DNA from: an uncultured Sulfolobales archaeon
Lineage (GTDB): Archaea > Thermoproteota > Thermoprotei_A > Sulfolobales > NBVN01
NCBI GenBank assembly: GCA_938083005.1
Contig: CALKCU010000016.1
Coordinates: 4,285 to 68,284, forward strand
DNA length: 64,000 nt
Direction: 5' to 3'
Shown: one piece after another, positions 19,964 to 24,438 of the stretch
Layout: every line of letters starts with the position of its first letter
Position numbering within the stretch: the first letter of the stretch is position 1
The notes under the pieces: generated by a model
The model's database searches: none
What the model saw: the letters and a program-made list of their open reading frames with translations, nothing else
Told to the model about the DNA's origin: nothing
Made by a program: the position numbers and the translations under genes

Positions 19964-20062
19964 CAGACACCACCGAAAAGCTTATTTCTGCCCACCTTGG
20001 ACTGCTACTATATTTTTGATGTGGTAGCTTATAAGCTTTTCTCCTCACATGGGATAGCGGAA

Positions 20063-20136
20063 GCCGCCGTAGCTCAGCCTGGCAGAGCGCCGGCCTTGTA
20101 AGCCGGCGGTCGCGGGTTCGAGTCCCGCCGGCGGCT
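20063..20136 (+). tRNA. tRNA-Thr (anticodon TGT)
   Basis: Hand-folded cloverleaf: acceptor GCCGCCG/CGGCGGC, anticodon arm CCGGC-CTTGTAA-GCCGG, T arm GCGGG-TTCGAGT-CCCGC. 74 nt with no encoded CCA. Confidence 0.9.
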
Positions 20137-20396
20137 CCCGCCCTCACGGGCTTGTCGCGCGGAGGGATCGCGGCACGTCGAAGACGCGCCCCGGTGTCTG
20201 CTCCGCTGGAGCTAGCGCGAATCGAAGAGTGGACGTAGGCTATCCGCCCCGGGGTCTCCCGCGAAACTGCCCGCGCGGTGGGAGTGGTACCGAGCGGGGG
20301 CTGGGGACTATTCGGACGCTAGGACCGCTAAGCGCGGTCTGGGACTCTCTCCAGCTTAAAAGCTCTCACCGGGAGCTAGCTTAGGTAGCCGACTGT

Positions 20397-20630
20397 ATGG
20401 GTAAGGTGTATACTTCCGTGGTTAAGAGAGCCGCTCGGAAGCTGCTGGAGCTGTACCCGGGGGAGGTCTCGGAGGATTTCGAGAAGAACAAAGAGCTGGT
20501 GTCCAAGTACCTAGACGTCAAGTCTAAGAAGCTCAGAAACCAGGTAGCCGGCTACCTGACGCGACTAGTCAAGCTCTCGAAGAAGGCCGAGGTCCTCCCG
20601 CAGGAAGCGGAGATCTCGGATGAGGGTTAG
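20397..20630 (+). CDS. rps17e: 30S ribosomal protein S17e
   Basis: MGKVYTSVVKRAARKLLELYP is the typical S17e N-terminus. 77 aa. Confidence 0.9.
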   Translation: MGKVYTSVVKRAARKLLELYPGEVSEDFEKNKELVSKYLDVKSKKLRNQVAGYLTRLVKLSKKAEVLPQEAEISDEG

Positions 20631-21372
20631 GATCGAGCTTTACGGGTTCCTGAGAAACCTGGCCGGGTCGGGCGAGGTCGTGGTAGAGGTCCCGGACAGC
20701 TCTACCCTAGGGGAGGTCCTCTCCGCGGCTTCGGCCAGAGTCCCGGAGCTCCAAGAGGCTGTCGACCAGCAGGGGAGGCTCAAACCCTACTTCCTTCTCT
20801 TCGTTAACGAGGTCGACTACGCGCTCCTGGGGGGGTACGACTACGTGGTGAGGGACGGGGACTCCCTCCAGATACTCCCCATAAGCCACGGCGGGTCCAT
20901 CGCTCCCCTGGTGGAGTACCTTGAACGAATAAGCTCGGTGAGAGTGCTCGCGTGCATGGTCGACGAGAGGCTCGCAGAGCTCCTGCTGGGCTACGTAGAC
21001 TCGGTCAACGAGGGGTGCGTGGCGCAGGTACTACCGAGGAGGTACTATTACGGGACCGGGTACTCGGCCCTAGCGGCCTACCTGGCTCTCCGCTCCATGG
21101 AGCTCGGGATCAACGTAAGCAAAAAGAAGTCCCTGGAGTTCTTGCTCTACTACTTTGGGGACAGGCAGATAGGCAACGTGCTCAAGCTTCTCAGGAGTGA
21201 TCGCTCGAGGGAGTACGTGGCCGTCTACGCGTGCTTACCGGAGGCGGAGAGCTCGGGAGACCCCTTTGTCAGGTCCATCGCCGATCGCTGCGAACCCCCA
21301 GAAGAGCCCCGGAGCGTGCCTGTGGAGACCGTAGAGAGGCTGGCGCACGGTATGCTCAAGATAATCTCGTGA
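20620..21372 (+). CDS. MoaD/ThiS-like ubiquitin-fold domain fused to KEOPS subunit Cgi121
   Basis: Residues 1-92 look like a beta-grasp MoaD/ThiS protein ending in ...LQILPISHGG. The C-terminal part carries SLEFLLYYFGDRQIGNVLKLL, resembling the Cgi121 motif (M. jannaschii ...SFWMEILVRASGQRQIHEAIKII, from memory). Confidence 0.7.
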   Translation: MRVRIELYGFLRNLAGSGEVVVEVPDSSTLGEVLSAASARVPELQEAVDQQGRLKPYFLLFVNEVDYALLGGYDYVVRDGDSLQILPISHGGSIAPLVEYLERISSVRVLACMVDERLAELLLGYVDSVNEGCVAQVLPRRYYYGTGYSALAAYLALRSMELGINVSKKKSLEFLLYYFGDRQIGNVLKLLRSDRSREYVAVYACLPEAESSGDPFVRSIADRCEPPEEPRSVPVETVERLAHGMLKIIS

Positions 21373-23472: not shown

Positions 23473-24438
23473 CTAGAAGGGCAGCCGGGCGGGCAGTCCG
23501 ATCTTCTGCAGCAGGTCGCAGAGCACGCACGTCCTCCTGCTGTAGGCTGTGGGCGAGCCGCATACGGAGCACTGGGGCAGCTCTCCCAGCCTCGACGCCT
23601 CCGGTAGCAGCTCCCTCTCAACGTACCTGTCCACAGCCTCGAGTATCCTGAGGAGGGAGCCGGGCCTAGCTCTCTCCACCTCGTAGAGATAGTCCCGCAC
23701 TACGGCCCTCAGCGTAGGTCTGAACCTGATGTAGGGACACTCCGTCTCCTGGAACTTGAAACCCCTCATGAACGCGTAGACAGCGGTCTCCCACTCGTAT
23801 ATCTTCCTGAGGGGCTTGACCCTCTTGACGAAGTACCTACTAAGTGTGGGGCTCAGCGGGTGCCCCTGTATAAGCCTTACTCTGTCGCCCCTCAGCAGGT
23901 TCATCACGTAGGTCTGGACCTCGTCGTCCAGGTTGTGAGCGGTCAGCACCCTGTCGTAGCCCAGGGTCCTCGCGTAGTGGTTTATTATCCTCCTCCTCAA
24001 CACACCGCAGTACGTGCAGGGGCTAGTCTTCAGCCCCCTCGACCTATCCAGGGAGACTAGCTCGTCTAAGCCGAGGCCCGCGAACTCCTTAAAGGATGCC
24101 ACATGGAGGTCTATGCCGTAACTCCTCGCGACGTCCGCTATCCAGGCCACGTCGTCCGCTCGGTTGTAGCCCTCTACTCCCTCTATCACCGTCACTATGC
24201 CCATCCTCCCAGGATCGTGCACCTCCTTGACCAGATCCAGGAGGACGAAGCTGTCCTTGCCCCCCGAGAGTGCTAGGAGCACTCTCTCGCTGGGGGAGAA
24301 CATCCTATACCTCTCGACCTCCTCCCCCAGCCTCCTCAGCAAGTCCTCTCTGAAGCACCTACTACACAGCGCCCTCCCGGTATGCCTTTGCGCGACCCTG
24401 GCCTCGGCCTCCCCGCACGCGTCGCAGCGCCTGATCAA
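23473..24438 (-). CDS. tRNA 2-thiolation PP-loop ATPase (TtuA/NcsA family)
   Basis: N-terminal CxxC...CxxC, PP-loop LALSGGKDS and a C-terminal Cys pair (CSVCGSP...CVLC). Confidence 0.85.
   Translation of the reverse strand: MIRRCDACGEAEARVAQRHTGRALCSRCFREDLLRRLGEEVERYRMFSPSERVLLALSGGKDSFVLLDLVKEVHDPGRMGIVTVIEGVEGYNRADDVAWIADVARSYGIDLHVASFKEFAGLGLDELVSLDRSRGLKTSPCTYCGVLRRRIINHYARTLGYDRVLTAHNLDDEVQTYVMNLLRGDRVRLIQGHPLSPTLSRYFVKRVKPLRKIYEWETAVYAFMRGFKFQETECPYIRFRPTLRAVVRDYLYEVERARPGSLLRILEAVDRYVERELLPEASRLGELPQCSVCGSPTAYSRRTCVLCDLLQKIGLPARLPF

Follow-up and report, generated by a model that had tools for sequence, protein, structure and literature searches.

Among living proteins, Urm1 is considered to stand nearest to the ancestor of the ubiquitin-like modifiers, and the KEOPS complex is universal in archaea and eukaryotes. 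A fusion of a ubiquitin-like protein (Ubl) to the KEOPS subunit Cgi121 was described by Makarova and Koonin in all Thaumarchaea then available, apparently co-transcribed with ribosomal protein S17e, and a link to tRNA modification or a regulation of KEOPS was considered for it (PMC2948915; Archaea 2010:710303). The Sulfolobales neighbourhood in the same paper consists of S17e, a Urm1-like Ubl (arCOG00540) and a small uncharacterised protein (arCOG07188), with Cgi121 given as 'absent in Sulfolobales/Desulfurococcales'. Sulfolobus Urm1 is a conjugated modifier that needs a free C-terminus (PMC4569737). The protease HvJAMM1 cuts the linear fusion SAMP1-MoaE exactly after the last glycine, in a Gly-Gly (GG) dependent manner, in vitro and in vivo; this activates molybdopterin synthase, which is reversibly regulated by linkage and cleavage (PMC4443979). 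Similarly, DRJAMM cuts MoaD-MoaE (PMC8832034). Here we analyse a urm1-cgi121 fusion gene in a 64,000-nucleotide stretch of DNA (the window) from an uncultured Sulfolobales archaeon (assembly GCA_938083005.1, contig CALKCU010000016.1, positions 4,285 to 68,284). Its 250-residue product keeps the GG between the two domains, and we consider it, with a probability of roughly 0.55, to be a precursor that is cut after the GG by a JAMM protease, so that free Urm1 and Cgi121 arise in a 1:1 ratio.

The fusion open reading frame (ORF) lies at 20620..21372 on the plus strand. It starts with ATG and runs through 250 residues plus the stop codon in a single unbroken frame. The gene upstream is rps17e, encoding ribosomal protein S17e (20397..20630, plus strand; Pfam Ribosomal_S17e, E 1e-16), and the two overlap by 11 nucleotides. 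A preliminary description of this DNA had reported both the single 250-residue frame and the overlap, and the coordinates and the Pfam match bear them out. Homologues of the product form 20 protein clusters (48-81% identity, length approximately 250 residues) in which S-H-G-G (S89, H90, G91 and G92) is invariant. These clusters come from independent NCBI, JGI, ENA and Logan assemblies and are labelled 'Sulfolobales archaeon'. There is no frameshift or stop at about 20895 between the two halves, and the fused frame is common to all 20 clusters. The AlphaFold2 model of the 250-residue protein, built on the homologue alignment, had a mean predicted local distance difference test score (pLDDT) of 87.5.

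Residues 1-92 (20620..20895, plus strand) form a beta-grasp Ubl of the ThiS/MoaD/Urm1/SAMP superfamily, Urm1-like by Pfam, Foldseek and PDB sequence match, and end in ...ILPISHGG. They exceeded the Pfam cut-offs of ThiS (35.6 bits, cut-off 22.5) and Urm1 (29.6 bits, cut-off 21.8), with G91-G92 aligned to the last positions of the profiles. The NCBIfam equivalogs were not reached (SAMP1, 46.5 vs. 60; Urm1_like, 32.5 vs. 70), and the Ubl is therefore treated as a superfamily member and not as an assigned equivalog. The pLDDT was ~90 across residues 1-90, and the modelled beta-grasp fold retrieved SAMP1 (3po0, template modelling (TM) score 0.85), S. solfataricus Urm1 (4wwm, ~0.8) and yeast Urm1 (2ax5, 0.76) from the PDB with Foldseek, further matches being fungal Urm1 and MoaD proteins. 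The best PDB sequence match was a eukaryotic Urm1, that of T. brucei (E 5e-7). The earlier view of this half as a beta-grasp Ubl with a GG is thus supported by profile scores, profile position and fold.

The junction (residues 88-94, I-S-H-G-G-S-I; 20881..20901, plus strand, the GG at 20890-20895) is a seven-residue coil according to DSSP, and the pLDDT falls to ~70 there. The GG is not a free C-terminus, as 158 in-frame residues follow it; a free GG end would therefore need proteolysis, and the predicted cleavage site is after G92. The part that follows the GG begins where the free-standing Cgi121 proteins of relatives begin, with an N-terminal helix and then a strand.

This C-terminal half (residues 93-250; 20896..21369, plus strand) contains SLEFLLYYFGDRQIGNVLKLL and, judged from profiles and predicted fold, is a diverged but genuine Cgi121. 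NCBIfam Cgi121 NF011465 matched it at E 2e-8 and 34.4 bits, under the 40-bit cut-off, and Pfam CGI-121 had no match in the fusion protein alone or in the whole source genome, making a custom profile necessary. The profile was made from 22 orthologous Cgi121-like modules gathered from related loci. It matched every solved Cgi121/TPRKB (E 8e-16 to 1e-5) and nothing else significantly, and 15 of the 22 modules individually matched Pfam CGI-121 (E up to 0.01). Foldseek searches of the PDB with the C-terminal part retrieved human TPRKB (7sza_B and 9fl9_A) and the Cgi121 of P. furiosus (1zd0, TM 0.60), yeast (4xah) and M. jannaschii (7kjt_H), with E values from 4.5e-4 to 1e-2 and probabilities of 0.94-1.0; plant Cgi121 was also found. 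The Cgi121-like character proposed in the preliminary description is consequently carried by the 22-module profile and by Foldseek, the single-protein score being below its cut-off.

The conserved Cgi121 helix motif N165-I184 (NVSKKKSLEFLLYYFGDRQI; 21112..21171, plus strand) was aligned to MjCgi121 and includes the equivalents of the residues that bind the 3'-CCA end of tRNA. K168 stands opposite the Lys of 'IAK' and Q183-I184 opposite the 'QI' of 'RQI'. By alignment, K168, Q183 and I184 are the counterparts of K59, Q74 and I75 of TkoCgi121, which bind the tRNA 3'-CCA end and were mutated in PMC10989989. Position 168 is K or R in the 20 clusters, Q183 is kept in at least 90% and I184 is invariant.

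The source genome is a metagenome-assembled genome (MAG). The Cgi121-module profile detected exactly one locus in it, the fused one (E 9e-41), while the genes for Kae1 and Bud32 are neighbours on a different contig (C2; Bud32 206 bits, over the cut-off). Since the fused module is the only Cgi121 of a genome with Kae1 and Bud32, KEOPS in this organism must use the fusion protein, with the caveat that the MAG is 83% complete.

The fusion protein was searched against 201 genomes of its class, and then an rps17e-anchored survey of 151 genomes of the phylum was performed; approximately 100 loci were inspected by script with iterated hidden Markov models. In 25 related loci (first two rounds), as in those loci of the phylum sample that carry a Ubl, the rps17e gene was directly upstream of the Ubl, so the coupling to rps17e noted earlier is real and strongly conserved. 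Whether fused or split, genes in the order rps17e, Ubl, Cgi121 occur widely across the phylum. Fused genes with HGG occurred not only in the window's genus but also in two others of its family, g3 and g7; outside that family they were present in genus g37 (family f9) and in 11/11 inspected genomes of family f18 (junction ...IIPVIHGG-S/A/N/Q...), which is evidently the thaumarchaeal Ubl-Cgi121 case. An exhaustive profile search added the fused clusters P0021, P0022, P0047 and P0117. Across five lineages with fused forms (the window's genus; g3/g7; f9; f18; P0021/P0022/P0047), HGG is invariant.

In the split form, the Ubl ends in HGG-stop and the Cgi121 start overlaps or abuts it. This form was found in genera g2, g4, g5 and g8 of the window's family, in families f11, f5, f30 and f41, and in part of f23. 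HGG-stop occurs at the rps17e-linked Ubl of at least 12 related genomes, and most free-standing matches of the fusion profile stop at profile position 92, their own C-terminus. Three genomes carry short tails after the GG (SYVV, SPRHM and SPRHV). Compared with the fused congener G179, the first of these tails (SHGG-SYVV-stop in G160) seems to stem from a recent frameshift or from faulty assembly. In the sister genus g5, the Ubl (...PVAHGG) and Cgi121 (AMAIDEAV...) of locus L013 (G187:C147:24996-25718) are in the same frame with a single TAG between them; in the congener G135 they are in different frames, 4 nucleotides apart. Cgi121 also follows rps17e, directly or within 1-2 kb, in loci with no Ubl between (L106 and L107 in f2; L051-L056 and L074-L076 in f22, f23 and f28). 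A JAMM was found in 0/5 genomes of f2, 0/12 of f22 and 0/5 of f28.

The family f5 loci are of the Sulfolobaceae type. The Ubl of one of them (L030) is homologous to the crystallised S. solfataricus Urm1 4wwm (E 1e-13). Downstream of the Ubl, an ORF of 127-134 residues shows Cgi121 motifs, and the Cgi121-module profile matches it with E values from 5e-15 to 2e-20. Its place immediately behind the Urm1-type gene points to arCOG07188, the small uncharacterised protein of the 2010 paper. If this correspondence holds, Cgi121 is not missing from the Sulfolobales and Desulfurococcales; it is a diverged ORF directly after urm1, short in Sulfolobaceae-type genomes. No JAMM over the Pfam cut-off was found in that family; the matches in 2/38 and 1/6 genomes were all sub-threshold.

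The Ubl is also joined to an unrelated partner. In family f3 (L033 G044:C1, L109, L110 and L111), the rps17e-linked Ubl continues through HGG-(S/V/K) into a phosphoribosyltransferase (PRTase; Pfam Pribosyltran, E 2e-25). In family f6 (L034, G022), the Ubl ends in GG-stop and the PRTase follows as a separate gene, with a Cgi121-like ORF further downstream in L034.

We analysed next the enzymes that could mature and use the Ubl. The source genome encodes one E1 enzyme of the ThiF family (267 residues) and one Prok-JAB/MPN+ ORF (G000:C31:8198-8536, minus strand; L009 1456-1872), an open frame of 137 residues. This JAMM scored 33.5 bits with Prok-JAB (cut-off 25 bits) from profile position 3, and has the motif H-T-H…S-P-L-D. 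Four ThiS-family domains were found in the genome, all with residues after the GG. Besides the Ubl of the fusion, they are an 83-residue Ubl ending in ...VVSGG-S (G000:C22:19190-19423; L001 1489-1740), a 91-residue Ubl ending in ...AAGG-A (G000:C14; L002 1372-1647) and a 252-residue MoaD-...SAGGGG-THE...-MoaE fusion (G000:C57, minus strand; L004 1003-1761). The window itself encodes a tungstopterin-dependent aldehyde:ferredoxin oxidoreductase. With this enzyme encoded and all of the Ubls extended past the GG, MoaD must be matured, and an activity that exposes the GG must exist.

Residues after the GG of the rps17e-linked Ubl went together with a JAMM: 23/23 inspected genomes of this kind have a Prok-JAB match over the Pfam cut-off (16 Cgi121 fusions, 4 PRTase fusions and 3 short tails). 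Among the inspected relatives in which no JAMM was found, 12/12 unfused Ubls are GG-stop, and the single fused one (G195) has lost the GG. Within the window's family the counts were 4/4 vs. 3/14 (Fisher p ~0.01, calculated by hand on relatives that are not independent). The pattern recurs with the PRTase partner: in family f3 the genes are fused and a JAMM is present, in f6 they are split and no JAMM exceeded the cut-off. A more general rule, that any Ubl with residues after its GG implies a JAMM, was rejected. In G036, a complete Sulfolobaceae-type genome, MoaD-...LLPPPAGG-ELFMNSRF...-MoaE forms one 235-residue frame (L117, G036:C1:761181-761861), and neither a Prok-JAB nor a JAB match was found in this genome. 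The rule survives only for the rps17e-linked Urm1-type Ubl.

We propose cleavage after G92. The invariant HGG, the flexible junction, the correspondence of the post-GG part with the starts of free Cgi121 proteins and the unrelated fusion partners all fit it. In this scheme, the gene is urm1 fused in frame to cgi121, its usual follower in the conserved rps17e-urm1-cgi121 operon, and the JAMM/MPN+ metalloprotease of the genome would cut the peptide bond after G92, releasing a 92-residue Urm1-like protein with a free GG. The single E1 (ThiF/UbaA type) would then adenylate and thiocarboxylate the released Ubl for tRNA thiolation and/or protein urmylation. The released 158-residue Cgi121 would join Bud32 and Kae1 in KEOPS and hold the tRNA CCA end during the synthesis of t6A37. 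The fusion would enforce equal synthesis of the two proteins, which the overlapping stop and start codons of the split relatives would approximate.

Several observations weigh against this scheme. The evidence for cleavage is comparative, together with the precedent of other JAMM proteases, and none of it is direct. Upstream of the region with the likely catalytic Glu (…GKELTGLGIG…), the JAMM frame of the source genome lacks any ATG, GTG or TTG, and its first canonical start would give a truncated 96-residue protein; a non-canonical start (ATC, CTG or ATT) seems likely. JAMM is common, being present in 108/151 of the phylum genomes sampled, so the co-occurrence is a necessary-condition pattern across about six independent lineages and not proof. 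The MoaD-MoaE frame of G036 means that either another protease exists or such fusions work uncleaved. Finally, a fusion without GG persists in genus g6 (L029 G195:C9; P0032 and P0033), where a degenerate beta-grasp-like domain (...VLVIIERDLSDLL..., ...VLAVIDLRPDQVL...) precedes Cgi121. It is found in two clusters (P0032 and P0033) of a representative library at 50% identity, indicating that an uncleaved Ubl-Cgi121 is viable. No JAMM was found in the g6 genomes, which are a possible case of capture of the Ubl as a permanent KEOPS domain.

The leading alternative is that the protein stays fused. The beta-grasp domain would then be a permanent, non-conjugating module of Cgi121 and KEOPS, with the GG kept as a linker or recognition element; it might be a docking surface for E1, the proteasome, Bud32 or tRNA-thiolation enzymes. 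The g6 proteins and the internal GG of the G036 MoaD-MoaE speak for it, the overlap of the Ubl stop with the Cgi121 start in split relatives is compatible with physical joint action, and a regulation of KEOPS by the Ubl was also considered in PMC2948915. We regard this alternative as unlikely on balance. H-G-G is strictly kept in five fused lineages and is identical to that of the free forms, every rps17e-linked fusion that retains the GG is in a genome with a JAMM, and the orthologous free Urm1 of Sulfolobus is a conjugated modifier dependent on a free C-terminus (PMC4569737). Moreover, this Ubl is elsewhere joined through its GG to a PRTase, a partner unrelated to Cgi121, and a releasable module accounts for that better than a KEOPS-specific domain. 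The preliminary description had left proteolytic release and a non-catalytic Ubl module side by side; both still stand, and the evidence leans towards release.

The two forms may also coexist. Processing would be partial or regulated (e.g. by redox state or temperature), with the JAMM setting the ratio of precursor to active Urm1 and Cgi121 and thus tying KEOPS assembly to the supply of Ubl. The reversible control of molybdopterin synthase by HvJAMM1 and SAMP1 (PMC4443979) offers a model, and as all Ubls of this genome need maturation, the JAMM would be a single control point. The sequence data do not separate such regulation from constitutive cleavage, and Cgi121 is essential in the archaea tested (PMC10989989), which would make an inactive precursor costly. 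We consider this version improbable. An artefactual merger of two neighbouring genes, through a frameshift introduced in sequencing or assembly or through loss of a stop codon, is a thought encouraged by the state of the MAG (70 contigs, 83% complete), by the differing congeners G179 and G160 and by the lone in-frame TAG of G187, but it can be set aside with near certainty given the fused frame in 20 independently assembled clusters at 48-81% identity that share length and S-H-G-G, the conserved linker length, and the fusion in 11/11 inspected f18 genomes, several of them single-contig.

The proposed release of Urm1 by a JAMM might apply more widely. On a tentative generalisation, in which we place slightly less than even confidence, archaeal Urm1 is repeatedly a polyprotein-type precursor, joined through GG to the next gene of the rps17e operon (at least four lineages with Cgi121, one other with a PRTase) and released by JAMM/MPN+ proteases, and this would couple the capacities for s2U and t6A. 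If so, these genes would be a prokaryotic counterpart of the eukaryotic ubiquitin-fusion precursors, with the supply of the carrier tied one-to-one to KEOPS assembly. The lineage that has lost both JAMM and GG would represent the next step, the incorporation of the Ubl into KEOPS as a lasting domain.

A maximum-likelihood tree of the Ubl and Cgi121 modules showed five changes of the 'fused' label, of which well-supported branches alone force at least four. The protein of the window is sister to the split genus g5 of its own family and lies outside the f18 clade. Its placement among split genes and the number of changes indicate that the fusion arose or was undone repeatedly, and that the window's case is an event of its own; a single origin of the fusion shared with the Thaumarchaea was rejected by this tree. 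The Cgi121 module of the window has ~14-17% sequence identity to the f18 modules. Several collapses of the conserved urm1-cgi121 operon into one gene are, at the genomic level, strong evidence for joint action of the two products.

The Ubl-Cgi121 architecture is not new, and the gene of the window is an independent recurrence of the design published in 2010. The JGI annotation of a relative (P0015) already names both domains. The link of Ubl, Cgi121 and tRNA modification put forward in the preliminary description stands as to architecture and not as to novelty, because the fusion, the S17e linkage and the tRNA-modification idea are all in PMC2948915. What is new is the extent of the operon, the recurrent fusion with the GG kept, and the co-occurrence with JAMM with one counter-example. 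The literature covered Cgi121 with Urm1, the Thaumarchaeota fusion, two Sulfolobus KEOPS/Urm1 papers, a 2025 URM1 gene-shuffle paper and a 2022 t6A review. In it we found no experimental work on the Ubl-Cgi121 fusion beyond the 2010 comparative paper, and no test of its cleavage. The main text of the Saccharolobus Urm1 substrate proteomics paper makes no mention of Cgi121, KEOPS or S17.

Behind the fusion gene, a TtuA/NcsA-type PP-loop thiolase (23473..24438, minus strand) is convergent with ABCE1. The preliminary description had identified this gene and read its proximity as a contextual link of two modification pathways. The identification was correct, but the linkage was rejected: the thiolase is on the opposite strand, its orthologues in five relatives are 60 kb to >800 kb away or on another contig, and a second NcsA/TtuA paralogue is present elsewhere in the source genome. 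As its position is not conserved, its proximity here carries no weight. Between rps17e and the divergent TFB gene there is a tRNA-Thr(TGT) gene (20062-20139, plus strand). The codon read by this tRNA, ACA, is of the ANN type, and the tRNA would itself be a substrate of KEOPS for t6A37; this is probably a coincidence.

If the precursor is processed by a JAMM, archaeal Urm1 would share with eukaryotic ubiquitin one of the latter's hallmarks, synthesis as a precursor. The fusion would then be a physiological substrate for the MPN+ proteases of Thaumarchaea and hyperthermophilic Thermoproteota, amenable to a simple in vitro assay. If the protein stays fused, the KEOPS of these organisms would bear a Ubl domain.

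The closest relative by design is the thaumarchaeal fusion, with which the locus shares the order of Ubl and Cgi121 directly after rps17e, the GG kept at the junction and the presence of a JAMM (20/20 in f18). It differs in being a separate fusion event by the gene tree, in a lineage labelled 'Sulfolobales archaeon'. With Urm1 of Sulfolobus and Saccharolobus (Saci_0669; 4wwm) it shares the operon of rps17e, a Ubl ending in ...INHGG in their case, and a Cgi121-like ORF (L030, L032 and L114). In those organisms, by contrast, the Ubl is GG-stop and the start of the Cgi121-like ORF overlaps it; furthermore, their Urm1 was shown experimentally to be conjugated to proteins (PMC4569737). The Ubl-MoaE fusions (MoaD-MoaE, SAMP1-MoaE and MoaX) are likewise beta-grasp carriers joined through GG to a co-expressed partner, and cleavage after the last Gly is needed for their activity. 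The source genome itself has a MoaD-GGGG-MoaE and one JAMM. The difference lies in the partner, as Cgi121 is not known to use a Ubl thiocarboxylate. In eukaryotes, ubiquitin is made at the N-terminus of the precursors Ub-eL40 and Ub-eS31, and a protease exposes its GG. The window's gene resembles them in its N-terminal Ubl, in the predicted exposure of the GG by a protease and in its translation-related genetic context. No evidence points to a common descent of the fusions, however, and here the partner is a tRNA-modification subunit, with rps17e as an unfused neighbour, the Ubl is of the Urm1/ThiS type and the predicted protease is an MPN+ enzyme in place of a cysteine deubiquitinase.

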